A stretch of 64,000 bases of DNA, from contig CAZEKF010000001.1 of NCBI GenBank assembly GCA_964512765.1, positions 66,366-130,365 on the forward strand. Direction: 5' to 3'. Positions 40,392-60,632 of this stretch are shown here, piece by piece (positions within the stretch are counted from its first letter, which is position 1; every line of letters begins with the position of its first letter). Source of the stretch: an uncultured Methanosarcinales archaeon. Lineage in GTDB: Archaea; Nanobdellota; Nanobdellia; Woesearchaeales; GW2011-AR15. The notes below the pieces were generated by a model. The model did no database searches and had not been told where the DNA came from. It saw only the letters and a list, made by a program, of their open reading frames with translations. Made by a program: the position numbers and the translations under genes.

Positions 40392-41405
40392 TTATTGGTC
40401 TAAATATGATTCCAGTTTTTTTCTTTTGTAATCCATCAGTTTAATATGTTTATTAAATAATTTTAAGTTTGGTTTTGAAGTTATTCGGATAATATATTTA
40501 GAACATTTACCATATCTGTTCATATATGTGTTTGTTAAATAAGGACCTTGAACTTTAATACCCAACTTGTTTAGAAGTAGCTTGTCGATTTCCAGAATGC
40601 CTGAAGGAGCAGGAGTACCATTCTTTATTAAGGATGCTTGTTCTAATGTTATCTCCCTTTTTCCAACACATCCATCGTCATTGAAAGCTTTTGCAAGAAA
40701 CTCAGAAATTAATTCTTTGTCATCAATTTTTTCTAGGAAACTGAATGGTTGAAAATGGATTTTTATTTTGTATCCAGGAGTATAACCTATGGAGATCATT
40801 ATCTCACCTACTATGGTTGGCAAAGTTATGCGATAGATACCTTTTTTGTCTTTTTTAATTTCTCTTTTAAATTTCCCAAATAATATTTGAGAGTCACTAA
40901 GAAATTCCGAACATTCAGGTTTTGATTTATTTACATATCTAGGTTGTTTGTTGTCTTTTCCAATGCAACCGTCATGATAAAGATGACTTAAAAATCTCAT
41001 ACCTTCTTTTGTATTGAAACTTATGGGAAAAACAGGATAATATATTTTTTGTGAATGAGAACCACCACTTTTTATATAATATATGTTTTTTTCTAAATTC
41101 AATAATGTGAAAGTACCACATCCCGCATTTACCAAAAGATTCGATATCTTCTGAAGATTTGATAATGAAAAAGGGACTCTTGTGAATTGATCCCAAAGTT
41201 GAGTAAAACTAATATTAGAAATCCGAGACAAGTTTGTTATTGTCTCAAAGGTGTTAAGTGCACTTTTAAATATTATTTTTTTAAGTGGAGGTTTGAACTC
41301 AACATAAATGGATTCCGTATTGTTCAAATTTAAGGAGCTTTTCAAATCTCTTAAATGATATGTTCCCTTTTTTGTTGATCTTTTACTCTTTTTTCCAAAT
41401 TTCAT
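40392..41405 (-). mobile_element. Free-standing double-motif LAGLIDADG-type homing endonuclease gene (putative)
   Basis: Two LAGLIDADG-like motifs (LSHLYHDGCIGKD and LAKAFNDDGCVGKRE) about 100 aa apart. Basic C-terminal tail. Inserted between a Zn-ribbon gene and EF-1beta. Confidence 0.5.
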
Positions 41406-45091: not shown

Positions 45092-46738
45092 ATGACGAAA
45101 AAGAAAAGATTAATGGATGATGCAGATCTTGATCAGTTTGTTAGAGACTGTATTCTTATATGGTATAATCGAACTGATGCACAGCCAATAACCGAAGAAC
45201 AGTCAAAAAAAATTTACAGAACAATTGGTGATATGGTTAACGCACACGAATTAGTCGCAGAGGTTTTTGAAGCTACGCAAGACATAATTCCTTTAATTGT
45301 TTATGATGAAGTACGCGTTTTAAGAAAAGAAATTGATCAGTATGATTCTCTTCTTTATGTTTTACATGGTAATTTTGATTATAGAGATGCACATCTAAGA
45401 CACGGAGATTCTTTGTTGGCTGTTTTAGCACAACACGTAGACTTGGCTACACCATACGAAACATGGAGACAACAACAAAACTTTTCTAAAGTTGATAATG
45501 TCACTGAACAACCTCAACAAGCACAAGCATTTGAAGTTGAACCAGGAGAAGAACATCACCACGTAGTACAACAATCTGTCCGAGATGAAATTCCGGTAAA
45601 TGCATCAGCAAGAGTTGAGGATATGCGTCTTGACGGTCATGCTTTACAAATACCAGGGACAGGAGTAACAGTTGCCACTCAGCTTGACCAACATCAAATT
45701 ATTGTTTCAGGAACAGCACCTAATAATTTTGTTATTCATCTACCAGGAGATCTTGGTGATAAATTACAAGACGGGTTACTTATAGTTGATACAATCGATA
45801 GGTTTTCACCTGAAATACGTCGTTTTGATTTTTTTTCAAGAGCTGAGCGAATTGCAGCTGGGCATGAAAAAGGGATAGCTACAAACTTATATCCGTCAGG
45901 ACAAGGAGCTAGTGCAACAATTACTTTTCAACAACCAGCAAACTATTTGTTAGTGCCTTTAGATGGAGATGGTGCATTAACTTGTGAACGAGGGAGATTC
46001 AAAGGATATATTGGGACATATAATTTGCGAAGATTTGAAAGAAATTTTAATATTTCTAATTTTCTTTTGGCAAACTTTAATTTTATTGTCAGTAAGTTAT
46101 CTGATCAGCCATTATTATTTGGACCTGTTCAAAAAGTGAATGTTAATGGTCAAGGATACGCAATAATTCAAGCATCTAAGGGAACTCAGACAGTTACCAT
46201 GCCTCCCCATGATGAACAAGATTTAGAATCGCCTGTTATTGCATACAAAAATGTTTTTTTCAAAGATAAAGGGTTGCCTTATAAAATTGGCATGGAAGTA
46301 ATTACTGCAGGAGGGTTAGCATCATTAGCTCTTATTTTTGGTGATAAAGCACCAGAAATAGGTAAAATGATTGGAGGATTTGCTGCAGGGTATTATGCTA
46401 CATCTGCAACGGTTGGCAAACGTACTTTTAAAAACACTTTAGTTAGTATTGTTACTGGTGTTGCTTGTGCAGCAACTACACAAATTAATTACGAACCAGT
46501 ACAAGAAGTTGTTCAAAATATTGTTGAACCTGTTTATGCGGGATTAGACGGATTATTTCTTGGGAGAATTCTATATGGAACAATATTTAATCCTATTAGG
46601 ATTAAAAACTGGGGAGAAAGAATATTTAGAATGTTATACTTGAGCAAAACCAATAATGCATTGACACAACCAGTAGCCTATACTAAAGAGAAAGTTGGTC
46701 ATGTTATAGAAGGAAGAATTGGTAGAGCTAGGGAATAA
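45092..46738 (+). CDS. Hypothetical protein with a C-terminal glycine-zipper membrane region (548 aa)
   Basis: About 400-aa soluble N-terminal region, then GxxxG-rich helices (VITAGGLASLALIFG, IGGFAAGYYATSA). Composition shift relative to the core genome. Confidence 0.3.
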   Translation: MTKKKRLMDDADLDQFVRDCILIWYNRTDAQPITEEQSKKIYRTIGDMVNAHELVAEVFEATQDIIPLIVYDEVRVLRKEIDQYDSLLYVLHGNFDYRDAHLRHGDSLLAVLAQHVDLATPYETWRQQQNFSKVDNVTEQPQQAQAFEVEPGEEHHHVVQQSVRDEIPVNASARVEDMRLDGHALQIPGTGVTVATQLDQHQIIVSGTAPNNFVIHLPGDLGDKLQDGLLIVDTIDRFSPEIRRFDFFSRAERIAAGHEKGIATNLYPSGQGASATITFQQPANYLLVPLDGDGALTCERGRFKGYIGTYNLRRFERNFNISNFLLANFNFIVSKLSDQPLLFGPVQKVNVNGQGYAIIQASKGTQTVTMPPHDEQDLESPVIAYKNVFFKDKGLPYKIGMEVITAGGLASLALIFGDKAPEIGKMIGGFAAGYYATSATVGKRTFKNTLVSIVTGVACAATTQINYEPVQEVVQNIVEPVYAGLDGLFLGRILYGTIFNPIRIKNWGERIFRMLYLSKTNNALTQPVAYTKEKVGHVIEGRIGRARE

Positions 46739-48110
46739 CCTCTTCGTAATAATCTGTTATTTTGAATGAATCAATAATTGTTGTGTTGTTTCCACTCACT
46801 TGATGAGCATTACCTATCAACGCGTTTTCATGCACGTCTATAGTTACAAAGTGATAAATACCGCATTTTGCATATTTTTGTAAAAAATTTATGCTTTGCT
46901 CATGATGACGTATTCCCCAACTACAGTCTTTTAATGGACCTCCTCCTCCGCCTGTTACAATAGTATGAATGAAGGTATTTGGAAAGATAAAAGTTTGTTC
47001 AGCACCGTTTTCGGGTTTAGTTTTATGCCCATCGTCAGGAACAGCATACCTTTCATATGAATGTAAATGACCTGAAAACACCATTGTTACATCATATTCT
47101 CTGAATAAATCTTCATAAAGATTACTTACTTTGGTAGTTTTACTCTCACCCATAGTAGCTGTATAAAACGGCATGTGCATGTATACAATAATGTTTTCTA
47201 TACCCTCCATTGATCGTGCTTGTTGAAGATGATTTTTTACCCAACCAACAGGTGTATTTCTCCAATATTCGTTTCCTTGTTCAAATGAAATAAAATATGT
47301 GTTTTTGTATCTAAAAGCATAGTTTGTTCCGTACTGAAGATCGCTTGGCGAACCAGATTCATGTGTGTTTGAAGGAGGGAACAACTTAAAATTATCTCCA
47401 AGTCCAGGGTTGCTTAGAAGAGAACTAAGAAATGACCTATATTGAAGAATTCCGTCTTGTGCTTGGTCATGGTTTCCGCTTGTTGGGAAGAAAGGTATAC
47501 CGTTTAGTTTATTTGTGAAACACTGGTTAAATCTACTGTAAGCACCGCCTGACCATCCCCAGTCCATTAAATCACCAGTATGAATTACTAAATTTGGGTT
47601 AGTCTGTGCTAACAAAGAGGGTAAACTTGATCTTTCAGCACCGCCGCATGAGTTTGTTGCATACTGTGTATCTCCAACAACGCCAAATCTAAACAAAAAT
47701 TCACCGTCTAATGATTCTGCGACTAATTTGTCCACAGGATTTCCTACCCACAACTCTAGTTTTTTTGAAGCTTCTGGTGTAGGTGTTGTCATTTGCGTAG
47801 ATGTCAATAAAATTTCTTGCGTTGGTGTCATAACATCTGTCGTTGGTGTATATACTTGAGTAGGATTTAATAGAACTTCTAAAGTAGGTGTTGTTGTAAT
47901 ATCAGATGAAACCACAGTGCCTAATGTGAAATCTGTTGAAAAAGCAATTGGGCTTGGAGTGACATAAACTTGTGCTTGGTTCTGTGATACAGATGTTGAA
48001 GAAGTTACTGTGCCATAGACCCAGCCAACAGTTACAGCACCGCCTAACAGTACAAGAGATCTTACTAAACCATTTTTCTTTTTCCTACGCCTACGTCTTC
48101 TTCTTGTCAT
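46728..48110 (-). CDS. Arg-tail signal-anchored surface protein with a calcineurin-like metallophosphatase domain; C-terminal ...EEVIP tag
   Basis: MTRRRRRRRKKK plus TM. T/P-rich stalk. Metallophosphatase motifs GDTQY, GDLMD, GNHD, MHMP, GHLHSYER. Ends DYYEEVIP. Confidence 0.7.
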   Translation of the reverse strand: MTRRRRRRRKKKNGLVRSLVLLGGAVTVGWVYGTVTSSTSVSQNQAQVYVTPSPIAFSTDFTLGTVVSSDITTTPTLEVLLNPTQVYTPTTDVMTPTQEILLTSTQMTTPTPEASKKLELWVGNPVDKLVAESLDGEFLFRFGVVGDTQYATNSCGGAERSSLPSLLAQTNPNLVIHTGDLMDWGWSGGAYSRFNQCFTNKLNGIPFFPTSGNHDQAQDGILQYRSFLSSLLSNPGLGDNFKLFPPSNTHESGSPSDLQYGTNYAFRYKNTYFISFEQGNEYWRNTPVGWVKNHLQQARSMEGIENIIVYMHMPFYTATMGESKTTKVSNLYEDLFREYDVTMVFSGHLHSYERYAVPDDGHKTKPENGAEQTFIFPNTFIHTIVTGGGGGPLKDCSWGIRHHEQSINFLQKYAKCGIYHFVTIDVHENALIGNAHQVSGNNTTIIDSFKITDYYEEVIP

Positions 48111-48116
48111 TTTTAT

Positions 48117-49469
48117 TTAAGGTATAGCTTCATCAGGATCATACTCTTCCACATTTGAAGCAACATGAACATCAGATTGTAACCTTGCAACCCAGATTTC
48201 GCTGTTTGATTTTTTCAAAGAATAACTGTGCTGCTGGTCTATCTTACCATATAGTAACCATAGTTCTTGGTTCATTCTATATATTTGATTTGCAGAATAA
48301 TGTTGGAAATTACCTTCTCCATTAAGAACCCACTTACCTGTTCTGTTCCAATTAATACCGTCACTGCTATACGTCCATTCTAAATGAACATTACCTTCAG
48401 CATGAACACGATCAACGCCTTCTCTAATGTTACGTAATTCTGGTTCATAAATCCAAAGAACACCTAAATATCCATTCTGAACTTGTGTAACTGCCATACC
48501 ATAGAAATGCGTGTCTTTTCCTTCTTTATCAATCTCACTTTGGTTTGGCACAAGCACTAGCTGTGGTTCAGACCAATTAATAAAATCATCAGATACAACT
48601 CTAGCAACAGTTCTTATTCTTACACCTTCAATATTTTCTTGTCTTTTAACATATCCAACATATTTATTTAACCTGAAATCATAGAAAAAGTTAGCAACAT
48701 CGCTCCAATTTGTATATGGGCCACCTATTTGATTAAAATCAATACCATTTGTAGATTCATATGCCATAAATCCGTTGTCTCGTTTATATACCATTAATTT
48801 CATGGTCTTTGTACCATCATAAACAACAGACGTCATGTTAGAATTTTCAAATAAAATCCGTTCGTTACTCCACTCATTACCATTACCACTTTCTACAACT
48901 CTAATGCTTGACCCAGAACCCGATGCTTTATCCCAATGAGTGAAATAAAGAAAATAGTTGTCACGATTTTCTCCTTTTGGTAAAATTCCACCATACACAT
49001 ACTCGATACCTTCAAACCTGTTTCCTTCTGTAAAAAGTATAGAATTATCTATAACTCTAACACTGTTAATCCAAGAAGCCAAATCAAACTCAAGATTACA
49101 TAAATATTCAGGAGGGCATAAAGATGCTTCTATTGTATTTTCAAGTGTAGGTGTTAAGGTTACAATTGGTGTTGAAGTTAACAACACTTTTGGTGAAGGA
49201 GTAAGTATAACCGGTTGAGTAGGATCAGACACAATAGTACCATCTGCAAAAGGTTCAGAAAAAGTAGGAATTGTCTGGTTGTTGTCAGAATGTTCTTTTG
49301 GATTATAAGGTAAGATAGCAGCTATTTGGTCAAATATTGGTTCGTTAAAATCAATCTGGCTTATTACATAACCTGTGTATAAAGAAGCTCCTCCTATTAA
49401 AGCAACTGTTCCAATAGTTTTAAGGAAATTTCCTTTTCTTTTCCTTCTTCTACGTCTTCGTCTTGCCAT
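48117..49469 (-). CDS. Arg-tail signal-anchored surface protein with a beta-propeller glycoside-hydrolase-like domain; C-terminal ...DEAIP tag
   Basis: MARRRRRRRKRK plus TM. T/P stalk. W/Y/G-rich repeated blocks typical of GH32/43/130-type propellers (the fold assignment is tentative). Ends EEYDPDEAIP. Confidence 0.4.
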   Translation of the reverse strand: MARRRRRRRKRKGNFLKTIGTVALIGGASLYTGYVISQIDFNEPIFDQIAAILPYNPKEHSDNNQTIPTFSEPFADGTIVSDPTQPVILTPSPKVLLTSTPIVTLTPTLENTIEASLCPPEYLCNLEFDLASWINSVRVIDNSILFTEGNRFEGIEYVYGGILPKGENRDNYFLYFTHWDKASGSGSSIRVVESGNGNEWSNERILFENSNMTSVVYDGTKTMKLMVYKRDNGFMAYESTNGIDFNQIGGPYTNWSDVANFFYDFRLNKYVGYVKRQENIEGVRIRTVARVVSDDFINWSEPQLVLVPNQSEIDKEGKDTHFYGMAVTQVQNGYLGVLWIYEPELRNIREGVDRVHAEGNVHLEWTYSSDGINWNRTGKWVLNGEGNFQHYSANQIYRMNQELWLLYGKIDQQHSYSLKKSNSEIWVARLQSDVHVASNVEEYDPDEAIP

Positions 49470-49475
49470 TTTTAT

Positions 49476-51134
49476 TTAAGGTATTATTTCTTCATAAAAT
49501 TCATTTCCTTCGAAAATTCTATCTCGAACAACATAATATGCTGCACTACACTCAACAGGTGAGTCTGTAATGCCTTCACCAACACAACCATATTCAGGTG
49601 TTTTAAATGGAGATTTTACAGCACCTGTTATAGAAGTAGAGAGCATAAAATCCTTAACAGCATTTGCAACAGCTTCATAACACCTAAAACTGTCAAAAGG
49701 GAACCCTTCCACAGCTTGGCAACTCATTAAATTGTTTGTTAACCAAGCAAGTTGGTCAAGACTTGTGTCATAATTAAGTGGTTCCTGAAAATTTAATACA
49801 TTTATCATATATCTAACATGCCACATATGACCTAACTCATGTGCAAAAACTTTTGTGAATATTTCTTGAGACACTGTATCTCTGTTTTTCATTATAATTT
49901 CATTATAGGAAACAACACCAGAGTCTGTTGTATTTTGAAAGCTTGTAACACCAGTGTCTGAACACGTCACAATTAACGGATCATTAAATAATACATAAGG
50001 TCCAACTCTTGTAACGAGTTCTTCTGCCCAAACAGGAATTTCTTGTCTACAGTTGTTAAAAGATACTAAACCAAATTCATATGTAGGGGCTTGTGCAACA
50101 ACTACAGTCGGAGTAGGTACAAGAGGTGTGTTAGTCAAAGTAGGGTTGAGAACACCAGTTGGCGTAGCTATCGCAACTTGACCACTACCTTGGTCAGGTT
50201 GAGAAATATCTACTTCAACAAACACACCTTTGTAATCAGGATATAAACTGCTAAGGTTTTCTAAACTAGTAGATTGTACACCACCTGCTGCAGTTGAATG
50301 AATAACAGTAACACCGTTATTAGTTGGGATCGCTATTCCAACATGCGAATATTCTCTTATGCCACCTTTATCATGGTTAAGTGTCCATAGATACATTTTA
50401 CCAATTTCCATATGATTACCAATATCATCCCATTTATCAGGGTCATAACCTTGGAACTCAGTAAATCCGTCTATTGGTTTAAATATCTGAGAATTTGGAT
50501 CAATAATGTATGCAATGTTAAGTGTCTGGTCCCAACCATATGCTTGCCTTAAAACTTCGTCATCTGCAGGTCGGTCTGTTCTTTGTTGAAATGCGTCGTC
50601 AAGTTTGATATTAACTCTACTAATTGCTCTGGCAGCTTGTAACTGATACCCTGCACAGTTGAATCCAATAACATTATCAATTGTTGGTGCACCACCTGTC
50701 CAATAAACAAACGAGCCATTATCATCAATAAAACCAAAGTTCTTGTAAGGCACGCCAATGTACTGACTTGCGTCATTTAAAGCCATTTGTGCAATTTCGT
50801 CAACACTTTTACTCGTCTGTGTAAAAAATAACGTTGGAGTTGGAGTTAACATTAAAGCATCAGGCGTAGGAGTTAATGCTACTGGTTGAGTAGGTCCAGG
50901 GATAAGTGTACCATTCATGAAACTTTCAGGAAAAATAGGAATTGCTTGATTATCATCAGATTGTTCTTTTGGGTTGTAAGGTAAGATAGCAGCTATTTGG
51001 TCGAATATTGGCTTGTCAAAATCTATCTGACTGATTAGATAACCACTGTATAAAGCTCCACCTATTAGAACCAAGTTTACACCAGTCCTAAGACAACCGC
51101 CTCCTCTCCTTCTTCTACGTCTTCGTCTTGCCAT
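49476..51134 (-). CDS. Arg-tail signal-anchored surface protein with NlpC/P60-like cysteine peptidase and HEXXH zinc-metallopeptidase domains; C-terminal ...EEIIP tag
   Basis: MARRRRRRRRGGG plus TM. NCAGY (Cys) and HVGIAIP...IHSTAAGG (His) of NlpC/P60. AHELGHMWH zincin motif. Ends NEFYEEIIP. Confidence 0.6.
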   Translation of the reverse strand: MARRRRRRRRGGGCLRTGVNLVLIGGALYSGYLISQIDFDKPIFDQIAAILPYNPKEQSDDNQAIPIFPESFMNGTLIPGPTQPVALTPTPDALMLTPTPTLFFTQTSKSVDEIAQMALNDASQYIGVPYKNFGFIDDNGSFVYWTGGAPTIDNVIGFNCAGYQLQAARAISRVNIKLDDAFQQRTDRPADDEVLRQAYGWDQTLNIAYIIDPNSQIFKPIDGFTEFQGYDPDKWDDIGNHMEIGKMYLWTLNHDKGGIREYSHVGIAIPTNNGVTVIHSTAAGGVQSTSLENLSSLYPDYKGVFVEVDISQPDQGSGQVAIATPTGVLNPTLTNTPLVPTPTVVVAQAPTYEFGLVSFNNCRQEIPVWAEELVTRVGPYVLFNDPLIVTCSDTGVTSFQNTTDSGVVSYNEIIMKNRDTVSQEIFTKVFAHELGHMWHVRYMINVLNFQEPLNYDTSLDQLAWLTNNLMSCQAVEGFPFDSFRCYEAVANAVKDFMLSTSITGAVKSPFKTPEYGCVGEGITDSPVECSAAYYVVRDRIFEGNEFYEEIIP

Positions 51135-51140
51135 TTTTAT

Positions 51141-52694
51141 TTAAGGTATTAATTCATCTGGTCCGTCATAATGAACTGTTGCAAAATTTACAACTGACCG
51201 ACCACTCCAAGTATATTCGTACAGCCTACCATTAAAATAAATCTGTTGCGATCCTCCAGCGTCCATGTTAATTGCAGAATGTGCACCAATGTTGTCCATT
51301 ATTTCTGCAGCATTGCACAAAGTCATTGGTTGAGTTATCATAACAAATAAGGTATTATCATTCACGCCAATCACTGTTCTTCCTCTTGAACCCCATTTAG
51401 GAGAATGACAATCTTGTTTAATGTCAGGATAAAAATCACCGCCGTAGTTGCTTCTATTAAACAAAGTATTGTTACCAGAAACAGCGTATAATATACCGTC
51501 GAAGTTACTGTTAATGTGCCTAATTGTTACTCTACCATTTTCATAAACTACTAATGAAGGCTCTCTAGGGTTTCCAGCATGGACATGATTACGATGTACA
51601 TACGGACCTTTAGGAACAGATGAACCAGAGTCCCATTGATCAGCATTAACAGTAAAAATTACATTATGGCTGTTAGCATATCCTTGCGCAGTATTTAACC
51701 CACCAGGTGCAGAAGATCCAACATTAATGTAAGGACTACACAAATCAAATTTAAACAAAGTATAATTGCCATTATTTTTAATTATTATAGGCTCATCCCT
51801 TGGTTTACAGTTATTTGGTCCTTGTGATTCTTCTGTTGGTCTAGGAGTATGTGTCAATGTAGGGACAGGAGTTGGTGTACTAATTAGATGTTTAATATCT
51901 ATATTACCTAAATCAGGTGAATAACTTTTAACTGCATCTTTTAGATGTTGGTAAGGATAACTGTTATTTGCAAAGCGCAACATTTCTTTTTCAGCTAGAT
52001 CGTAACTGTAGTTTTCGAACTCCACCCTATATATACCAACAATCATACCTGCTCTATGCGCACCATGCTGGCAATGAACATATACCGGTTGCATAGCAGG
52101 ATCTTTAATAATTGTCATAATCTCTAGAATATTTTTGTTAAAATCATGATGTGTAGGAGATTCTGCATTCATTGGATATTTATCAATGTAAATCATGCCT
52201 CTTTGTTCAACTAATGATCGTTCATTAGGCATTCCTTGAGACAAATCTATAACTGTTTTAAATCCTTGAGCTTGTAAATAATCAAAAGCAGCAGCAGAGT
52301 CTGGTTGAGCACCTGCAGCTAACACACCAGGATCAATCCATCTTAAATGAGTTACTGGTGAACCTTCAACTAAAGGAGGAATTTCTGCTTTAACAACAAT
52401 GTCAAGCGTAGTAGTTGGTTGAGGTGTAGGTGTATGGGTTGGCATCAATGTGGGCAGAGGAGTGTGAGTTAATGTTGCTAAAGTTTCTGGTGTTATGTAT
52501 GGGTCTGTTGGTGCGTACAGTACTGTTGCAGTAGTATCTAAGATTTGCTGAGCAGACATGTTATTAACATGAGCAGATGCATGGTCCCTTGTTTTAAAAT
52601 AAACAAATGACGCCGCTGTACCAAGAATAAATAATCCAAGAGGTATAACACAACTATTTCTACGATTCTTTCTTCTACGTCTCCTACGTGCCAT
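51141..52694 (-). CDS. Arg-tail signal-anchored surface protein with a CX5R (PTP/DSP-type) phosphatase domain and a phosphodiester-glycosidase (NAGPA-like) domain; C-terminal ...DELIP tag
   Basis: MARRRRRRKNRRN plus TM. VHCQHGAHRAG is an HCxxGxxR P-loop. C-terminal AINMDAGGSQQ resembles the NAGPA/DUF2233 motif. Ends YDGPDELIP. Confidence 0.6.
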   Translation of the reverse strand: MARRRRRRKNRRNSCVIPLGLFILGTAASFVYFKTRDHASAHVNNMSAQQILDTTATVLYAPTDPYITPETLATLTHTPLPTLMPTHTPTPQPTTTLDIVVKAEIPPLVEGSPVTHLRWIDPGVLAAGAQPDSAAAFDYLQAQGFKTVIDLSQGMPNERSLVEQRGMIYIDKYPMNAESPTHHDFNKNILEIMTIIKDPAMQPVYVHCQHGAHRAGMIVGIYRVEFENYSYDLAEKEMLRFANNSYPYQHLKDAVKSYSPDLGNIDIKHLISTPTPVPTLTHTPRPTEESQGPNNCKPRDEPIIIKNNGNYTLFKFDLCSPYINVGSSAPGGLNTAQGYANSHNVIFTVNADQWDSGSSVPKGPYVHRNHVHAGNPREPSLVVYENGRVTIRHINSNFDGILYAVSGNNTLFNRSNYGGDFYPDIKQDCHSPKWGSRGRTVIGVNDNTLFVMITQPMTLCNAAEIMDNIGAHSAINMDAGGSQQIYFNGRLYEYTWSGRSVVNFATVHYDGPDELIP

Positions 52695-52740
52695 GATGTT
52701 CTCATCGACCAGTAGTAAATAGTTATATTTAAAGATAGTG
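52650..52740 (-). repeat. Copy 1 of an approximately 90-bp duplicated segment covering the leaderless promoter (TATA-like TTTAAATATAACT) and the first approximately 14 codons of the Arg-tail gene
   Basis: A 45-mer CATGATGTTCTCATCGACCAGTAGTAAATAGTTATATTTAAAGAT at 52692..52736 is identical to 54313..54357. The flanks are near-identical. Confidence 0.7.
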
Positions 52741-52785
52741 GGTTTTCAATATGATTTTACTGTATAATTGAAGAAGAATTAGGTG

Positions 52786-54315
52786 CTATGGAATAGGTTC
52801 ATCATAATTATATTCATAAGCGGTTCTAAATGAGCTTGCAATATCTATACTGTTTCCAGAAATTAAAACTAATTTTCCACTATTTGACCCATTCATGGTT
52901 GGTATTGTTAAATTAACATTACCTTCTTCATTTGCTTGAATAACATCACCAGTAAAAACATTTGTTAATATTTCATAAGCTGGTAGTCCATTGAGCGTAT
53001 AATTTCTGGATTCTTGTGTTAAATTGACTAGGTAATACATTTGGGAGTCATTAGGCCCTTGCCTGACCATGTATGCAATACCATTTTGGTTTCCATATTC
53101 TGGATTTGATCCAGTTAACCAAGGCATTAACGCATGAAGTTCATGACCAATCTCACTAATAGTATTCCATAAAGATTCGTATAAACATGGTTTATTATAT
53201 TCACATTCTGGCCAATCCCATAAGGCAATACCATTAGCACCGCCAACAATTGCTTCGTCAATTCGTTGCCTAAGCATACCTCTTGATTGATTATAATTAA
53301 AATGTGCTGGTAAAACAACAAATGTAGAGTTTGAAATACCAGATTCTTTTTTACTTGATAACTGTCTTACTGAATTAAATGTTTTTCCAGTTCCTGAATA
53401 GTTATGATAAAAGTCAGCACCCCATATATCACCTAAGAGAGTATTAAATAATTGATCAGAAGAATAACCAAAATTAGGTTGATCCATTCTGTGATGTAAT
53501 ATTAATGTGTCGTGAACTGCATTGTTATGAATTTTTTTGTGGAGCCTTGTAACTTTTTCAGATATTAAGTTCCAATTTTTAATTAAATTAGGTTCATCTT
53601 TTCCATAGAACCATAACATTGAAGGATGATTATCTACAAAATTAATGAATTCAATTAGTTCTTCAGGTTTTTCGTCATATGTGTCAAATCGAGGAATCAT
53701 CATCATGCCAAATTCTCTGGCATGTTCAAAAATTTTGGGACCATATGGCTGCATAACAATTGTGTTAATACATGCATTAGACACTCTTTGCCACACATTC
53801 ATATTATGATTTATTTCAGCATCAGGCCCAAAGTCAGGATTATCAAATGCACCAGGAGGCCTAGGTAAATAATATATTCCAAATGGAAAAAAACCTGTTC
53901 CTTGTTGAGGGAGACCGTCACCAGTAATAATTATTGAACCTTGATTTTCATAATTTATTTGATTAGCACCATTTGCATACCAGGAAGGAACACATATAGT
54001 ATTATGTTGAACTAAATCTTGGAGATTTTGGACTTGAAGGGTGGGCGTTAGGGTAGGTAATGGTGTTGGTGTTGAAGTAGGTAATGGAGTATGAGTTAAA
54101 GTTGGTAATGTTTCAGAAGTCACAATTGTTTGAGTAGGTACAAAAAAAGCTTGTTGTGCAGGAGTCGCAACACTATTTTGTTGAACAGATGCTGCAATAT
54201 TTGGTATTACTTCTTCAAACATAAAATATGACACAGTAGTACCTAAAATAAATAATCCAAGAGGCACAACACAACTATTTCTACGTTTACTTCTTCTACG
54301 TCTCCTACGTGCCAT
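52786..54315 (-). CDS. Arg-tail signal-anchored surface protein with a TIM-barrel glycoside-hydrolase-like domain (tentative); C-terminal ...DEPIP tag
   Basis: MARRRRRRSKRRN plus TM. T/P stalk. WFYGKDEPN resembles the GH clan-A NEP acid/base strand. Ends YNYDEPIP. Confidence 0.35.
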   Translation of the reverse strand: MARRRRRRSKRRNSCVVPLGLFILGTTVSYFMFEEVIPNIAASVQQNSVATPAQQAFFVPTQTIVTSETLPTLTHTPLPTSTPTPLPTLTPTLQVQNLQDLVQHNTICVPSWYANGANQINYENQGSIIITGDGLPQQGTGFFPFGIYYLPRPPGAFDNPDFGPDAEINHNMNVWQRVSNACINTIVMQPYGPKIFEHAREFGMMMIPRFDTYDEKPEELIEFINFVDNHPSMLWFYGKDEPNLIKNWNLISEKVTRLHKKIHNNAVHDTLILHHRMDQPNFGYSSDQLFNTLLGDIWGADFYHNYSGTGKTFNSVRQLSSKKESGISNSTFVVLPAHFNYNQSRGMLRQRIDEAIVGGANGIALWDWPECEYNKPCLYESLWNTISEIGHELHALMPWLTGSNPEYGNQNGIAYMVRQGPNDSQMYYLVNLTQESRNYTLNGLPAYEILTNVFTGDVIQANEEGNVNLTIPTMNGSNSGKLVLISGNSIDIASSFRTAYEYNYDEPIP

Positions 54316-54362
54316 GATGTTCTCATCGACCAGTAGTAAATAGTTATATTTAAAGATGGTGT
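54272..54362 (-). repeat. Copy 2 of the approximately 90-bp duplicated promoter / 5'-CDS segment
   Basis: See copy 1. About 4 mismatches over about 90 bp. Confidence 0.7.
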
Positions 54363-54441
54363 TTTTTATGAAAATTAACTCTTAATTAGTATCAAATAAT
54401 TTTAAATATAACGTGTCATTACTTTTTAGTAAGAATTTATC

Positions 54442-55818
54442 ATGGTAAGATTGAACATTAAAAAAAAGACTAGAAAGCGCTCAAAAAAAAGAAGCTCAAG
54501 AAAGACTTTAAGAAGACGACCTAGTTCAGGTAATTCTCTTCAAAATAAATTGTTAAATTTTATACCTTCAGAGGCACCTGCTCAACGTCCAGGACTTGAA
54601 TTTAAAGATATTGTGGGAGATCTTTTTCGAAGGGGACCATGGTACTTATTTACACCATTTGCTTTGGAATCCGGAGATGCAACTGTTGATATTAATCCTT
54701 CTAGTCCAAGTCACGGGCAAATCATTGGTGATGTTAGTCTTAATCCAGTGAATGATTATGCAATAAATCATGTTACTTTTGAAATTGGGAAATCTATGTT
54801 AAGAGGCATTGCAGCTTCAAAAGAAAATTCAATAGTAGATACAATAATGCATGTAAGTGTTTTAGGATTATCCGGTTATCAATTTTATAATGGTTTTAGG
54901 AGATTAGGACATTTTCTATGGACAAATCCTATTACAGGTATACCCATTAGATCCTTAATAGGAAATTATGCACCAGATTTAGCAATGGCAATTGACATGG
55001 AATACTTGGACTTAAATTCACAACCAGAACAGTACACACCAATGGGTTCATTATTTGTAGGTATTAGCAACATCACTAGAGGATTTGAAGATGGAATTCA
55101 AGCACTGGGACAATTATATTTTGATGTTCTAAGAATGATGGGAAAGGTTGCGGAGTCAGAACCTAAAAGATCTCTTAAAGATATTCTAAAAGATTTAATT
55201 CCAAATATGCCTAGAGAAGCACCTGCTCAACGTCCAGGATTAGAATTTAAAGATATTTTTGCAGACTTATTCAGAAGAGGACCATGGTACTTACTTACAC
55301 CGTTTGCATTAGAGTCAGGAGATGCAACTGTTGATATTAACCCTTCCAGTCCAAGCCATGGACAAATCATTGGAGATTTAAGCCTTAATCCAATAAATGA
55401 TTATGCAGTTAGCCATGTCTCATTTGAAATTGGAAAATATGTATTAAGGGGCATTGCAGCAGCTGAGAAACGTCCTAAAGTAGATTTGTTAATGCACGGA
55501 CTTGTTGGTGCATTATCTGGTTGGCAAATTGCATATGGTTTAAAAAGATTTGGACATTTTCTATGGACAAACCCATTTACAGGCATACCTCTTAGATCTT
55601 TTATAGGTAGTAATGCACCAGATTTAGCGATGGCAATTGACATGGAATATTTAGATTTAAGTTTACAACCTGAACAGTATACGCCTATTAGTTCATATTT
55701 TGTAGGAATTAGTAATATCACCAGAGGAATTGAAGATGGAATTCAAGCAGTAGGGCAATTATATTATGATACTCTTAGAATAATGGGACGAGTTGCAGAA
55801 CCTGATGATATGTATTAA
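54442..55818 (+). CDS. Basic-tail protein made of two tandem approximately 200-aa repeats of an unknown domain
   Basis: N-terminus KKKTRKRSKKRSSRKTLRRRP with no TM. Residues 44-258 and 259-458 are about 75-80% identical (EAPAQRPGLEFKDI...GDATVDINPSSPSHGQIIGD...). Confidence 0.4.
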   Translation: MVRLNIKKKTRKRSKKRSSRKTLRRRPSSGNSLQNKLLNFIPSEAPAQRPGLEFKDIVGDLFRRGPWYLFTPFALESGDATVDINPSSPSHGQIIGDVSLNPVNDYAINHVTFEIGKSMLRGIAASKENSIVDTIMHVSVLGLSGYQFYNGFRRLGHFLWTNPITGIPIRSLIGNYAPDLAMAIDMEYLDLNSQPEQYTPMGSLFVGISNITRGFEDGIQALGQLYFDVLRMMGKVAESEPKRSLKDILKDLIPNMPREAPAQRPGLEFKDIFADLFRRGPWYLLTPFALESGDATVDINPSSPSHGQIIGDLSLNPINDYAVSHVSFEIGKYVLRGIAAAEKRPKVDLLMHGLVGALSGWQIAYGLKRFGHFLWTNPFTGIPLRSFIGSNAPDLAMAIDMEYLDLSLQPEQYTPISSYFVGISNITRGIEDGIQAVGQLYYDTLRIMGRVAEPDDMY

Positions 55819-55829
55819 TTTAAAGAATT

Positions 55830-57314
55830 TTATCCAGTAATTTGATTTTGTTTGTTATGAGTTTGATTATGATCATATAACTCTTTTGTACTTAGACTAG
55901 TTGTTGCTGCAACTTGTTTAATTTGCATATGGTCATTGTTTGCCCATGAAGAAATTCTATTTACAGCTGCATGTATCTTTTCCATATCTCCTTTTGCGTA
56001 CATTCTAACACAAGCCAAACGGTAGTTAGGGGGAAGTTTTCTTAATTTTTTTTTTTTAATTTGTTTTACAGGATCTCTAAACAAACCAGTTTTCGGCATC
56101 CAGTCACCGTAAGCATATTCAGGTATTACTTCAAATACCTCTTCAGGATCAAATTCATCAATTCCTTTGAACATTCTTTCAGTCCATGTTGCTTCATCAG
56201 GCGGCATCCATGGTGCTATGGAACAGTTTCGAAACCTAGCAATTGAGTTGGCTCTAGGCTGTGGAGTGTACGGATATCCATACAATGGATAGTAAATTTG
56301 TACTTCTAATTCAAGACCACCAGACTTTTCTTTTTCTATTTCACTAACGTACCCAACTACTAAGTCACCGTCTATTTCAACAGGATTTAACTGGGAAGAA
56401 ACACCAGGAATGGGATCCCATCTTGGGTTTAGAGCTCTTCCCAAGAATAAATGATCAGCATATCTATCTCTGTATCCTTCCATTTGTGAAAGATGTCTTG
56501 GTAAAGCAAAAAGACCACCTAGATCATAAACTCTTTTTGAAAATTCAACTTCTAATTCCATCTGCCCTGTATTTGTATCATGGTCAATATCAGCAAAAAC
56601 CAAAGTACCCAAACTTCTATCAAATATTTTAGGCAAAGCATTTAAAAATTGAACTCTAGCCATTTGTTCTGGATCAAGTTGTAATATTTTAATTGCATTC
56701 AAGATGTATTTAGTAACATAGGTCATGGGACCTTGCGAAAGAATGTTGACGTTTGATATGTATGGGCCGCTAGCAAGTGCATTAATAAGACGCTTACCAA
56801 AAGCATCTATAGTAATTTCAGTCTTTACATCTCGATCTTCCACAGGATATTGTCCAATTCTGTATCTGTTTTTTGATGCTTGAATTTCTTCGTAGGCAAA
56901 ATGATGTTTGAGATGGTGAACTGAAAAATCTGTAAACAGTGTTGCAAGCATATCTGGACTTCCTGCCATTTTAAAATCTAACTCTAACTTTGCATACGAT
57001 CTGTTTGGATAAAGTTCTAACCTTGTGTCACTACCTATGTATTCTTCTTGTTTAGGAACACGTTGAACTATACTTGCAAGCCCTTTTCTAATTTTCCTAT
57101 GTTTTGTTTTGTCTAAACTAAAAACTGGTTGCTCAGATTGCTGTGGCGGAGGAGTGTCCCATACCATGATTTGAGGTTCTGTTTGACCTAAATCTGTAGT
57201 TATTTCTCCTCCTTGGGTAGTTGTTATTCTAGAATCGTTGGATTTTGGACTAGTCATATCGCATGAGATTATTAAGTTAATATTTAAATATTTGCTTTTT
57301 CTAACTACTTTCAA
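55830..57314 (-). CDS. Hypothetical soluble protein (494 aa)
   Basis: Long ORF with no TM and no recognised motifs. Island-type composition. Confidence 0.3.
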   Translation of the reverse strand: MKVVRKSKYLNINLIISCDMTSPKSNDSRITTTQGGEITTDLGQTEPQIMVWDTPPPQQSEQPVFSLDKTKHRKIRKGLASIVQRVPKQEEYIGSDTRLELYPNRSYAKLELDFKMAGSPDMLATLFTDFSVHHLKHHFAYEEIQASKNRYRIGQYPVEDRDVKTEITIDAFGKRLINALASGPYISNVNILSQGPMTYVTKYILNAIKILQLDPEQMARVQFLNALPKIFDRSLGTLVFADIDHDTNTGQMELEVEFSKRVYDLGGLFALPRHLSQMEGYRDRYADHLFLGRALNPRWDPIPGVSSQLNPVEIDGDLVVGYVSEIEKEKSGGLELEVQIYYPLYGYPYTPQPRANSIARFRNCSIAPWMPPDEATWTERMFKGIDEFDPEEVFEVIPEYAYGDWMPKTGLFRDPVKQIKKKKLRKLPPNYRLACVRMYAKGDMEKIHAAVNRISSWANNDHMQIKQVAATTSLSTKELYDHNQTHNKQNQITG

Positions 57315-57369
57315 GTGATAAAATTAGTATTATTTATATATAACTTGTAATTACTCATCGATAATAAAA

Positions 57370-58398
57370 ATGCCTAGACGTAGAAGACGAAAGAAAGGAA
57401 TAGTGTCACCTCTGTTAATAGTTCCTGTTGTACTTTCTGCGACTAGTTGTTATTTAGTTTATTCAGTTCTTAAGTCTGATGATGGTGCTCTGGCACAAAA
57501 CAATGTTGTAATGATAACCACAACCTCAGAATACACTGCTACTCCTGCATACACATTAACTGCTGTTCCACCTGAATTAACACCAGAGGCAACAGTTGTT
57601 TTACAAGATTCTCATGGAGAAGGTTTCCCTGCAATACCTGCTGAGTTATTTAGTGGGATTCCTTCTAACCCAGGGGGAGGAGCTTTAGACGGTAGTTTGT
57701 TGCCAACATCTACACAAATGCCAAGAATGGGCTCTGAAGATCAACAGCCAAGAGAAGAACCGAATAATCCACAACCTGATCTTGGGAACTGTGCTATTAC
57801 TTACCCGTTTCAAGGAACACTAGGAGTTGATTTTTCAAGAACCTCGGGACCCCATACTTATGGAGCAGCAATAAATGGGGTTTCTCAGAATGCAGAAGAT
57901 TATGGAACTGCTGCAAATGTTGATCCAGTAATAGCTGTAATCTCAGGCAAAGTACTTTACTCATCACATGCACAATTATTGATTGATGGTCCTTGTTACT
58001 GGGCTTATTATTATCATGTTGACCAAGACCTGAGATACGGTCAACAAGTTGAAATTGGTCAAGCTATTGGTAGAGAAGCTTGTAATGTTGATAGTACTTC
58101 AGCAGGTTGTAGTGGTCCTCACGTTCACCTTAATATTTACGTTAAAGCTCAAGGACGAAGTGTGCCATTATCAGCTCTTAATGTCACATCTTGGCCAAAA
58201 GGTAATTCATATAATCCCTTCCAGGAGATTAGCGTAGCTTCTGCTATAGATTTTTTAGTTGCAAAAGAAACTTTGCAGGGCTATGAAGCAACACCACATG
58301 CTTTTGTATCTAAACAATTAGCAAGCGGTATTTATGTGCCTTCTTCAAAGAAAAAAAATGTTTTAGATGAAATAGTATGGGACCAGCCAATTTTGTAA
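57370..58398 (+). CDS. Arg-tail signal-anchored M23-family (LytM/lysostaphin-like) metallopeptidase
   Basis: MPRRRRRKKG plus TM. M23 motifs YYHVDQD (HxxxD) and GPHVHLNIY (HxH). Ends DQPIL. Confidence 0.65.
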   Translation: MPRRRRRKKGIVSPLLIVPVVLSATSCYLVYSVLKSDDGALAQNNVVMITTTSEYTATPAYTLTAVPPELTPEATVVLQDSHGEGFPAIPAELFSGIPSNPGGGALDGSLLPTSTQMPRMGSEDQQPREEPNNPQPDLGNCAITYPFQGTLGVDFSRTSGPHTYGAAINGVSQNAEDYGTAANVDPVIAVISGKVLYSSHAQLLIDGPCYWAYYYHVDQDLRYGQQVEIGQAIGREACNVDSTSAGCSGPHVHLNIYVKAQGRSVPLSALNVTSWPKGNSYNPFQEISVASAIDFLVAKETLQGYEATPHAFVSKQLASGIYVPSSKKKNVLDEIVWDQPIL

Positions 58399-60632
58399 AT
58401 GGAATAGCACTTGTAACAACAGCTGCTAGGTTGTTGGTACCTGCTGCAGGAGAAGTAATAGCATCTGATACTGTAGAAAGCCCGCAACAATCTGTTTCTA
58501 TTTGCCAGGCAATTAATGATCCAGGCAGTATTGGTGGTGATCTAGGCAATTTAGTTAATGCACTGGCATCTGCAGCTAGCCAAGCGCCAAGACATGGTAT
58601 TGGAATGAATGGTGGTGTGGAAAAAATAACAGCAGACGTGTTTGGCTGCGGTGAAATGGAGTTAACTGGCAAGTTTTTATCAACACTACCTGCGGCAGTT
58701 GCATTGTACTATGAACAATCTGACATTTCTTCAATGATTTCCAATGCAAGAAGTTACCCAGGTGGTGACCCTAGCAATGAAATAAGATCTGCTGTAGTTG
58801 TTGCGTTGTCAATGACTGAAAAAGGTAGAAAGATATTATCTGATCATGGAATTAATGGAAACATTAACGATGGAGCACAATTATTAATGGCAGTAAACAG
58901 GTTTGATGGTAAAGGACACGACATTATACCTTTACAAGACGCGTATTATTTAAGAACAGCTCTTCAAAATGGTAGAATTGTTGATGCTACTGCTTATAAC
59001 GAGAAAGCAATGTGGTATTATCAACAGGTAATGTCCAGTCCAATTTTAAGAGCTACCATGACAAGGATATCGATTAGAGAATGGACTCACAGACATGGAG
59101 CACAAAGTTACTGGGTGCAAATGGGTGGACGAATTAATTATTATCCAGACCATCCATCAAAAATATTTAACAGTGGAAAATGGTCAAGTTCTGCCTATGG
59201 AAAATACCAGTGGTTGACAAAGACATGGAATGATTTTTCTAAAAAGTTTCTTAATGCTCCAGGAATGGATCCTGTTTCACAAGAGTTAGGCGCTCCTGTT
59301 TTAATGAGAGAAAAAAGAAGTTGTTTTGATTTAGTTAGAGCAGGAGATAGAAATAGTCTAACAAGTGCTTTATCAGAATTAGGCTGTGAATGGGCAGGTG
59401 TACCGAATAGCTTAGCCAGAAGTGGGTGTATTTCTGGACAAAATCCAGCTGAGTCTGGTCAAGCATTTATAGACGCTGTATTTAGTACACATCTTCAAGA
59501 AGCAGAAAATATGCAAGACCAAGCATTTAAAACATTGTCAAGTGCAGGCCATCTTGGACCTTATTTGATAGTGCCTGCATTTAATTTTCCTGCTGGGTCA
59601 GTTGTTAAACTGCATACAAGTTCAGGTATAGTTGAAGTTCAAGGTCCAATTGCTATTCCAACATCTAATTTAGGCGACTGGGCGCAAAACAATAACTGGT
59701 CAGATACACGCGCGGGAGAATATACACCAGGTAATGGTTCTATTCCAATGAGTTATGTTAAGTGGATTAATGAACCAGACATGAGGCCAGTTGTTAATGT
59801 TCCTCAAGACATTGTTGCTGCACCAGAAGATTATGTGTTAAGTGGTGGTGCATCTTCTGCACCAGGCAGTGTTCCTGCAATGCAACTTGACGACACAGCT
59901 GAGACACTTGGTGTAATAGATCAAACTAGAGTGTCATCATATGGTAAGTTTGATGTGGAGTACGATGATCTTATGACTGCGTTTATAAAATCAGATACAG
60001 AAGTTACGCTTAACATTAGATCAATGAATATGGAAACAATAATTCACCAAGATAATATGTTTAAAATTGCACTAGGTAAAAACCTTGAAGTTGAAGGAGA
60101 CAGTTTGTCCTTAATAGGTTGGGGTAATCAGTTTAACCTTGAAGTTAATCAAAATTCTGCTGTTTTACAGTTACCTCAAAGTGAGGGTTATTTTGGTATA
60201 GGACTTATTTATGAAACAAATGGTATTTCTTATATCTTAAATACCAAAACAATTTTTGAAAGTCCTGCGTTAAGAGGAGAGTTTACATTTTTCGAATTAG
60301 ATTTACCTACAATAACTGATGATAACATGCAAAACCTTGACATTGCAGCTGTTGAACTTTCATGGAAAATGTATCAAGAAACTTTTGGTATTGTTTATAA
60401 TCCAGAAGAAATTGTAGAAAGAAAAGCTGAATGGGAAAGATATTCAAGAGATACTAATCATCCAGCTAATTTCTTTTATGTAGAAGCTGTTGGTATGCTT
60501 GCAAACACACCTATTTTTGGATATAATGATTCAGGTGAAATAATTGCTCTTGAACATGTTACACAGAACATGTTATTGCCTGTTCAAACATATGAATCTA
60601 ATATTGATTATTATCAAGAAGTTATACCTTGA
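58377..60632 (+). CDS. Large hypothetical secreted/surface protein (751 aa) with a C-terminal ...QEVIP tag
   Basis: Overlaps the M23 gene by 22 nt. No Arg tail. Ends DYYQEVIP like the minus-strand family. Domains not recognised; a muralytic partner role is speculative. Confidence 0.35.
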   Translation: MGPANFVNGIALVTTAARLLVPAAGEVIASDTVESPQQSVSICQAINDPGSIGGDLGNLVNALASAASQAPRHGIGMNGGVEKITADVFGCGEMELTGKFLSTLPAAVALYYEQSDISSMISNARSYPGGDPSNEIRSAVVVALSMTEKGRKILSDHGINGNINDGAQLLMAVNRFDGKGHDIIPLQDAYYLRTALQNGRIVDATAYNEKAMWYYQQVMSSPILRATMTRISIREWTHRHGAQSYWVQMGGRINYYPDHPSKIFNSGKWSSSAYGKYQWLTKTWNDFSKKFLNAPGMDPVSQELGAPVLMREKRSCFDLVRAGDRNSLTSALSELGCEWAGVPNSLARSGCISGQNPAESGQAFIDAVFSTHLQEAENMQDQAFKTLSSAGHLGPYLIVPAFNFPAGSVVKLHTSSGIVEVQGPIAIPTSNLGDWAQNNNWSDTRAGEYTPGNGSIPMSYVKWINEPDMRPVVNVPQDIVAAPEDYVLSGGASSAPGSVPAMQLDDTAETLGVIDQTRVSSYGKFDVEYDDLMTAFIKSDTEVTLNIRSMNMETIIHQDNMFKIALGKNLEVEGDSLSLIGWGNQFNLEVNQNSAVLQLPQSEGYFGIGLIYETNGISYILNTKTIFESPALRGEFTFFELDLPTITDDNMQNLDIAAVELSWKMYQETFGIVYNPEEIVERKAEWERYSRDTNHPANFFYVEAVGMLANTPIFGYNDSGEIIALEHVTQNMLLPVQTYESNIDYYQEVIP

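Follow-up and report, generated by a model that had tools for sequence, protein, structure and literature searches.

A predicted membrane-anchored archaeal surface protein with an NlpC/P60-superfamily head and a putative HEXXH zinc hydrolase head

The protein described here is encoded within a stretch of 64,000 nucleotides of archaeal DNA (contig CAZEKF010000001.1, positions 66,366 to 130,365 of the forward strand), which was analyzed as a whole and is referred to as the window; all positions are counted from its first letter. The gene, hereafter the target, occupies 49476..51134 on the minus strand and is an ATG-to-TAA open reading frame (ORF) of 552 amino acids (aa). Its product is interpreted as a membrane-anchored archaeal surface protein carrying two heads, of which the first is an NlpC/P60-type cysteine hydrolase and the second a near-orphan domain with a HEXXH motif. 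For this explanation as a whole, including the membrane anchor, the two heads and an attack on envelopes alongside the products of neighboring genes, we estimate a probability of about 0.55.

A preliminary description of this DNA had proposed that the two halves of the protein combine an NlpC/P60-type cysteine peptidase with a HEXXH zinc metallopeptidase. The ORF and the motifs it quoted are located as claimed: FNCAGYQ corresponds to aa 158-164 and contains Cys160, HVGIAI (aa 264-269) starts at His264, IHSTAAGG (aa 278-285) contains His279, and AHELGHMWH (aa 431-439) includes HELGH at aa 432-436. At least 23 contigs from several metagenomes, with lengths of up to 262 kb, encode exactly the same protein. 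The gene is therefore real and stable and does not represent an assembly artefact, and its features exceed what is expected by chance.

Results and Discussion

Head 1 belongs to the NlpC/P60 superfamily

The first head comprises aa ~105-320 (50175..50822; minus strand, as for all features of the target). An exhaustive HMMER search covering 1.84 billion representative proteins recovered ~48 genuine relatives of this domain with E-values from 4e-23 to 7e-4. Alignments of 25 and of 48 of these sequences revealed invariant positions that include Cys160 (50655..50657), His264 (50343..50345) and three glycines, among others. Cys160 is the predicted nucleophile and the only cysteine in head 1. His264 is the predicted general base and aligns to the histidine in the HVG motif of a canonical NlpC/P60 domain. 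His279 (50298..50300) is predicted to be the third residue of the triad, as it falls in a column that is occupied by Glu, His or Gln, with a single Ser, and that is matched with 'IEAS' in the canonical domain. The Cys and His named as catalytic in the preliminary description are thus invariant in a whole protein family, and the histidine of the quoted IHSTAAGG string lies in the column of the third triad residue.

A profile of the head-1 family matched PDB entry 3kw0 ('Cysteine peptidase') with E=7e-7 over the strand carrying the histidine and the strand that follows it. AlphaFold2 (AF2) modeling of head 1 with the family alignment gave a confident model, with a predicted local distance difference test score (pLDDT) of 91.2 and a predicted template modeling score (pTM) of 0.90. 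In the domain numbering of this model Cys160 is the first residue of helix 56-68, whereas His264 is located on strand 155-167 and His279 on the consecutive strand 170-177. The top matches of the model in a Foldseek search of the PDB were NlpC/P60 enzymes, namely 4h4j (a DUF1460 amidase), MepS, 7v6s, the P60 protein 3i86 and CwlO, with probabilities of 0.99-1.0, E-values from 4.5e-4 and target-normalised template modeling (TM) scores of up to 0.63. A fold search of BFVD retrieved phage hydrolases and papain-like proteins. One relative, P0009, harbors a canonical NLPC_P60 domain elsewhere in its sequence, and hhalign placed GKMYLW...HVGIAI...VIHST...GGV of the family opposite GDLVFF...HVGMII...FIEAS...GGV of that domain. 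Because the conserved residues, the profile match to 3kw0, the confident model, the Foldseek results and the hhalign alignment agree, head 1 is assigned to the NlpC/P60 superfamily. It has the canonical, non-permuted order of catalytic residues and belongs to a clade without a Pfam or NCBIfam model; in line with this, no NCBIfam model matches head 1. The membership is at the level of the superfamily and not in Pfam family PF00877.

In its papain-like fold head 1 resembles the NlpC/P60 (MEROPS C40) hydrolases, such as MepS/Spr of E. coli, CwlO of B. subtilis and the DUF1460 amidase BACUNI_02947 (PDB 4h4j). As in these enzymes the cysteine is positioned at the N-terminus of a helix and precedes the histidine; the latter lies on a strand and is followed, on the next strand, by the third residue, which is polar. 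The local motif of the canonical domain, G-x-hydrophobic...HVGI...IH/E-[AS]...GV, is aligned as well. In contrast to MepS, CwlO and 4h4j, head 1 has an unusually long distance of 104 residues between Cys and His, due to an inserted helical region, and no significant match to PF00877 or PF07313; moreover, the target resides in an archaeal genome, bears a predicted N-terminal membrane anchor and has no wall-binding domain. The permuted YaeF/YiiX proteins (Peptidase_C92), represented by 3kw0, provide the best match of the head-1 family profile at the sequence level, and weak matches to Peptidase_C92 occur in the same region. However, Peptidase_C92 is circularly permuted according to Pfam, with the histidine before the cysteine, whereas the invariant cysteine of head 1 precedes the histidine. 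Due to this canonical order, head 1 is not a member of Peptidase_C92.

Leaders of bacterial type (signal, lipoprotein or Tat) are present in most relatives of head 1. The additional Pfam domains found among the 48 relatives were SLT (five times), M23, polysaccharide deacetylase and VanW (twice each), LysM, NLPC_P60 and Amidase_5, and every one of them is peptidoglycan-related. As the fused domains in relatives all act on murein, peptidoglycan is most likely the substrate of head 1, judged by this association.

Head 2 is a near-orphan domain with a conserved HEXXH motif

The C-terminal domain (aa ~351-552; 49479..50084) is a putative HEXXH zinc hydrolase. In all protein collections searched it has a single homologue, P0008, which shares 34% identity. 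This protein of 308 aa is encoded on a contig of 1.8 kb and consists of a transmembrane segment, a Thr/Pro linker and the head-2 domain alone. Word-indexed searches, for which the full protein as well as the C-domain alignment served as queries, yielded just fragments from the same organism and P0008. Scans of genome, metagenome and viral contigs yielded no relatives, but these negative results are weak, because the metagenome collection did not return even the JGI contig of the window itself.

Some further matches to the target were discarded. Four apparent relatives (P0003, P0016, P0017 and P0033) matching aa 365-413 proved to be spurious when their sequences were read, as they are tandem-repeat, low-complexity translations. 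These eukaryote-like repeats obtained scores of up to E=9e-58 over up to 47 stretches by summation of dozens of weak repeats, which shows that multi-stretch phmmer scores can mislead. A phmmer match to scytalone dehydratase in the PDB (E=0.06) is not meaningful, and a Pfam match to DUF792 (E=0.007) is unexplained and was not used.

The HEXXH block is the best-conserved stretch between the target and P0008, and HELGH (aa 432-436; 49827..49841) lies within their longest identical run, FAHELGH.W..RY. A HEXXH motif occurs once in the 18,342 aa of the long ORFs of the window, compared to 0.41 expected occurrences, and the expectation for a protein of 552 aa is 0.012. Glu487 (49674..49676), which is part of C[YF]ExVA and is kept in P0008, is a candidate for the third zinc ligand. 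It belongs to an ExxA motif and follows the second histidine of HELGH at a distance of 51 residues, a spacing that is within the range of third ligands in gluzincins. By its 'xxAHELGHxW' string and the glutamate in ExxA, head 2 thus resembles the gluzincin HEXXH...E metallopeptidases, a resemblance at the level of motifs alone, but unlike gluzincins it shows no profile or fold match. His439 is not conserved and is replaced by Asn in P0008. Six cysteines are present in head 2, of which four are kept in P0008. As the domain is known from two sequences, these are too few to decide on the third zinc ligand. On the basis of these motifs we regard it as plausible, and somewhat probable, that head 2 is a zinc hydrolase. 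The metallopeptidase reading is unproven, because no profile match or usable structure confirms a zincin fold.

Evaluation of the two-headed interpretation

Several results weigh against the interpretation of the target as a two-headed, envelope-degrading enzyme. For head 1, no curated profile of the NlpC/P60 clan attains its cut-off: NLPC_P60 (PF00877) does not match the target and reached E=0.084 in one of 25 relatives, and Peptidase_C92 scored 14.9-17.5 bits in the target and its relatives, which is under the cut-off of 27. The Foldseek E-values are modest, even for the best match mentioned above, and the structural matches have TM scores of 0.4-0.6 and a large root-mean-square deviation. 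For head 2, the two sequences are the only ones known. The best Pfam match of this domain, Reprolysin_5 (E=0.024), which ends at the motif, is sub-threshold with 15.3 bits compared to a cut-off of 27 and was obtained for one of the two sequences, being absent for P0008. The head-2 profile had no matches in the PDB at E<=10, and phmmer of the target against the PDB returned no zincin. AF2 on the two-sequence alignment produced an unusable model with a pLDDT of 37.8; in this unreliable model HELGH is part of a long helix after two hairpins, and Foldseek found nothing above noise. The Pfam scan detected no wall-binding domain in the target (no LysM, SH3 or PG_binding). Finally, the known hosts of DPANN archaea are archaea themselves, which are without murein.

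Profile searches of each half and structure prediction, which the preliminary description had put forward as checks, gave a match to 3kw0 and a confident model (pLDDT 91.2) for head 1 but no significant match or usable model for head 2. Its claim of a HEXXH zinc metallopeptidase holds as far as the motif is concerned, which is real and conserved in P0008, but finds no support in a significant profile, a PDB match or a confident model. From the proposed pair of peptidase chemistries on one chain, the NlpC/P60 head is retained and the HEXXH peptidase head is unverified.

The same data could be explained by a protein with a single catalytic head, in which the C-terminal domain has no catalytic role and serves as a module for targeting, binding or structure, and HEXXH binds a structural metal or is kept for reasons other than peptidase activity. 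Peptidoglycan hydrolases usually pair catalytic with binding domains (PMC12352652), and the target has no other binding domain. Head 2 is rich in cysteines, like many binding modules, and both the lack of metallopeptidase profile or structure matches and the sub-threshold Reprolysin_5 match, which is missing in P0008, are compatible with such a role. However, FAHELGH.W is the longest identical run despite an overall identity of 34%, the motif is found in the typical zincin context of two hydrophobic residues and an alanine in front of HExxH, and the conserved ExxA motif is positioned as in gluzincins. Thus, we consider a non-catalytic head 2 rather unlikely, although it is the best of the alternatives.

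A second alternative concerns the substrate. Instead of bacterial murein, the enzyme might attack the envelope of an archaeal host, such as pseudomurein isopeptide bonds, S-layer glycoproteins or other surface proteins, or it might cleave free peptides, in the service of episymbiotic attachment or nutrition. Some enzymes of the NlpC/P60 and papain-like superfamily act on substrates other than murein, and the missing LysM, SH3 or PG_binding domain would fit such a function. According to the literature, cultivated DPANN archaea are episymbionts of other archaea. This explanation is nevertheless improbable, given that all domains fused to head-1 relatives act on murein, that the relatives resemble bacterial secreted proteins or lipoproteins and that neighboring genes of the target encode M23 and lysozyme/endolysin-like heads. 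A more specific reading of the target as a pseudomurein endoisopeptidase was dropped, as no match supported it.

Membrane anchor, linkers and tail of the target

The target starts with a basic poly-Arg leader, MARRRRRRRRGGG (aa 1-13; 51096..51134), which is followed by the sole hydrophobic helix of the protein (aa ~16-37; 51024..51089); the top Kyte-Doolittle windows start at aa 16-21. According to the positive-inside rule, this helix probably serves as an uncleaved membrane anchor with N-in/C-out topology. A Tat signal finds no support, as the spacing after the Arg run is variable and no consistent RRxFLK motif is found across the paralogues. A Thr/Pro-rich stalk linker extends from aa 76 to 105 (50820..50909), with a combined Thr and Pro fraction of 0.44-0.52 in windows of 25 aa. 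The second Thr/Pro-rich linker (aa 321-350; 50085..50174; fraction 0.44-0.48) is located between the heads and appears as a region of low pLDDT at the end of the head-1 model. The protein ends with the free C-terminal tail EEIIP (49479..49493). The Arg-rich anchor and stalk of the preliminary description are consistent with this organization.

The target is part of a locus of genes sharing a leader and a tail

Five co-oriented genes form a run (46728..54315, minus strand), of which the target is the third. Every protein of this run starts with M[AT]RRRRRR..., continues with a single hydrophobic helix and with a Thr/Pro linker, and has a free [DE][EP]x-I-P end. Three more genes with a leader and/or a tail are located at 57370-58398 and 58377-60632 (together 57370..60632, plus strand) and past the right end of the window, where a gene for a protein of 601 aa is found (L007:8086-9891, minus strand). 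In total, eight locus proteins including the target possess a basic or poly-Arg leader with helix and Thr/Pro linker and/or a [YF]x[DEQ][EP]x-I-P tail. Seven of them end with [DEQ][EP]x-I-P, in the versions EEVIP, DEAIP, EEIIP, DELIP, DEPIP, QEVIP and DEVIP. The remaining long ORFs in the window, and those in the 10 kb beyond its right end, have neither leader nor tail. To our knowledge, no known sorting signal has the form of this I-P tail.

Homology between the paralogues is confined to their first ~100-120 residues; the first ~113 aa of the target are 62% identical to those of the neighbor encoded at 48117-49469. The heads are unrelated to each other and comprise a metallophosphoesterase, a possible beta-propeller glycosidase, the two heads of the target, a dual-specificity phosphatase combined with NAGPA, one unknown domain, an M23 peptidase (Pfam M23, E=1.6e-7) and a lysozyme/endolysin-like domain (phrog_90 endolysin, E=1e-10).

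Four consecutive genes (52694 to 46728) share a reading frame and are joined by TAA-ATAAAA-ATG, with the ATAAAA spacers at 48111-48116, 49470-49475 and 51135-51140 (minus strand). The junction DNA, ATACCTTAAATAAAAATG[GA]CAAGA[CA]GAAGACGTAG, is the same in each of the three cases, has the core ATACCT-TAA-ATAAAA-ATG-[GA]CAAGA and contains no Shine-Dalgarno-like sequence. This pattern suggests duplication or recombination of a cassette, together with a coupling of termination and reinitiation. Stop-codon read-through to one polyprotein was rejected, since every unit begins with an ATG of its own and possesses both a basic leader and an anchor helix; in a fused chain, poly-Arg segments would come to lie outside the cell. 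Upstream regions that are nearly identical, ATCTTTAAATATAACTATTTACTACTGGTCGATGAGAACATC-ATG, and contain a TATA-box-like TTTAAATATAA are present at 54316-54375 and 52695-52754 (minus strand), and a related sequence precedes the M23 gene (57310-57369, plus strand). These regions look like duplicated promoters that drive the arsenal. The most novel element of the locus is its cassette architecture, in which leader, tail and junctions recur throughout and the I-P carboxy-terminus is unexplained.

The M23 gene (57370-58398, plus strand) encodes a leader but no I-P tail, whereas the lysozyme-like gene (58377-60632, plus strand) encodes a tail but no leader. The two genes overlap by 22 nucleotides in the -1 frame, an arrangement that is the same in at least four independent assemblies; the pair may represent a split gene or a frameshift. 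The upstream neighbor at 51141-52694 (minus strand) is two-headed as well: a Thr/Pro linker connects a dual-specificity or protein tyrosine phosphatase-like domain (aa ~116-244) to a NAGPA phosphodiester glycosidase domain (aa 344-505). It is a matter of speculation that this protein and the metallophosphoesterase encoded at 46728-48110 could target phosphodiester-linked wall polymers, e.g. teichoic acids. Placed divergently within the locus is a gene at 54442-55818 (plus strand), whose product of 458 aa matches no family and is built from a unit of ~215 aa in two copies; the string EAPAQRPGLEFKDI..DLFRRGPWYL.TPFALESGDATVDINPSSPSHGQIIGD occurs twice.

Genome context

The host genome context is archaeal, as genes for AglB/STT3, aIF5B, Trm1, CDC48 and aEF-1beta are found in the window and genes for RadA, a LonB-type Lon and ribosomal protein S2 just beyond it. 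The archaeon is probably DPANN-like. The G+C content is ~30%, with 0.28-0.32 at positions 1-42000 compared to 0.33-0.39 at 42000-64000. The right third of the window, which has the higher G+C content, contains CDC48 and the arsenal locus, and the left part is dominated by glycosylation genes (AglB/STT3, GT2, GlmS-like and phosphoglucomutase). A free-standing ORF at 40392-41405 (minus strand) has a faint match to LAGLIDADG_3, suggestive of a homing endonuclease, and lies near the aEF-1beta gene in matching contigs.

That the locus is a lysis module of a prophage or mobile element, or an artefact of assembly or annotation, is very improbable: two neighbors have PHROG endolysin-type matches and the G+C content of the region (0.33-0.39) slightly exceeds that of the left two-thirds (~0.30), but the locus is flanked by housekeeping genes (CDC48 on one side; ribosomal protein S2, Lon and RadA on the other), more than 20 contigs, with lengths of up to 262 kb, show identical synteny, Pfam, NCBIfam and PHROG scans gave no capsid, terminase or integrase matches within it, a scan of viral contigs detected none with a relative, and the N-terminal anchors and stalks suit surface display rather than holin-dependent lysis.

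Proposed function

In the two-headed interpretation, the poly-Arg leader and the single helix would hold the target in the membrane as a type II protein (N-in, C-out). The Thr/Pro-rich stalk would display the two heads, with the second Thr/Pro linker joining them. Head 1, using the predicted triad of Cys160, His264 and His279, would hydrolyze an amide bond in the stem peptides of bacterial peptidoglycan, either as an endopeptidase or as a MurNAc-L-Ala amidase. Head 2, presumably rich in disulfides, would bind zinc through His432, His436 and Glu487 and, employing Glu433 as catalytic base, would cut a second bond of the envelope. Together with its anchored neighbors (M23, lysozyme-like protein, phosphoesterases and NAGPA glycosidase), the target might breach or digest bacterial envelopes for attachment, predation or scavenging.

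A further-reaching possibility, which we regard as rather doubtful, is that the locus constitutes an undescribed archaeal system for display or export. Promoter, poly-Arg leader, helix, Thr/Pro stalk and [YF]x[DE][EP]x-I-P tail would form its constant part, the unrelated envelope-degrading heads would be swappable, and the conserved TAA-ATAAAA-ATG junction would connect the genes. I-P would then be a novel signal for sorting, docking or assembly, and the HEXXH domain would be the founder of a new metallopeptidase family with which a DPANN-type archaeon attacks bacteria.

Comparison with known systems

In phages and bacteria, peptidoglycan hydrolases with two heads, one a cysteine hydrolase and the other a zinc peptidase, are common. 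The target resembles these fusions of CHAP or NlpC/P60 with M23, known from phage lysins and bacterial autolysins, in its two hydrolytic chemistries, the second of which is putative, and in its flexible linkers, and two of the head-1 relatives are themselves fusions with M23. In contrast to these fusions, the putative metal-binding head of the target is a HEXXH domain without a known family rather than a domain of the HxxxD/HxH M23 (LAS) fold.

The preliminary description had stressed that archaea do not make peptidoglycan. This is correct, and the genome context is archaeal. However, a peptidoglycan hydrolase in an archaeon is less surprising than that description implied, because such enzymes have been described in archaea, especially in Nanoarchaeota/DPANN (PMC12352652, PMC9723730, PMC10936187). 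A survey of archaeal peptidoglycan hydrolases, among which those of Nanoarchaeota are prominent, demonstrated the killing of bacteria for two enzymes (Strock et al. 2025, PMC12352652). Two other papers (PMC9723730, PMC10936187) proposed lytic murein transglycosylases, as well as a predatory lifestyle, for DPANN/Woesearchaeota. As in the systems of these three studies, the locus described here would provide a murein-free archaeon with exported murein-type hydrolases, several of which are encoded per genome. The surveys covered catalytic and wall-binding domains that are recognizable by Pfam, or GH23, whereas the target has no Pfam domain above threshold. Moreover, the target is predicted to be membrane-anchored instead of having a classical Sec or Tat signal peptide. 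Since neither head passes a Pfam threshold and a wall-binding domain is missing, the target would escape the published surveys. No paper mentioning both DPANN and NlpC was found in the literature searched.

Implications

As archaeal peptidoglycan hydrolases and two-headed lysins have already been published, the advance is incremental. The finding that neither head of the target passes a curated threshold indicates that Pfam-based surveys undercount archaeal peptidoglycan hydrolases. Both heads are candidate antibacterial enzymes, and a protein-sorting signal that has so far gone unrecognised could lie behind the common leader and I-P tail. If the predicted activities are true, an uncultivated archaeon would possess a battery of membrane-tethered enzymes against bacterial envelopes, including a cysteine hydrolase with amidase or endopeptidase activity, possibly a new zinc peptidase, an M23 peptidase, a lysozyme-like protein and phosphodiester-cleaving enzymes. 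This would back the predatory ('vampiristic') or antagonistic lifestyle that has been proposed for some DPANN archaea.

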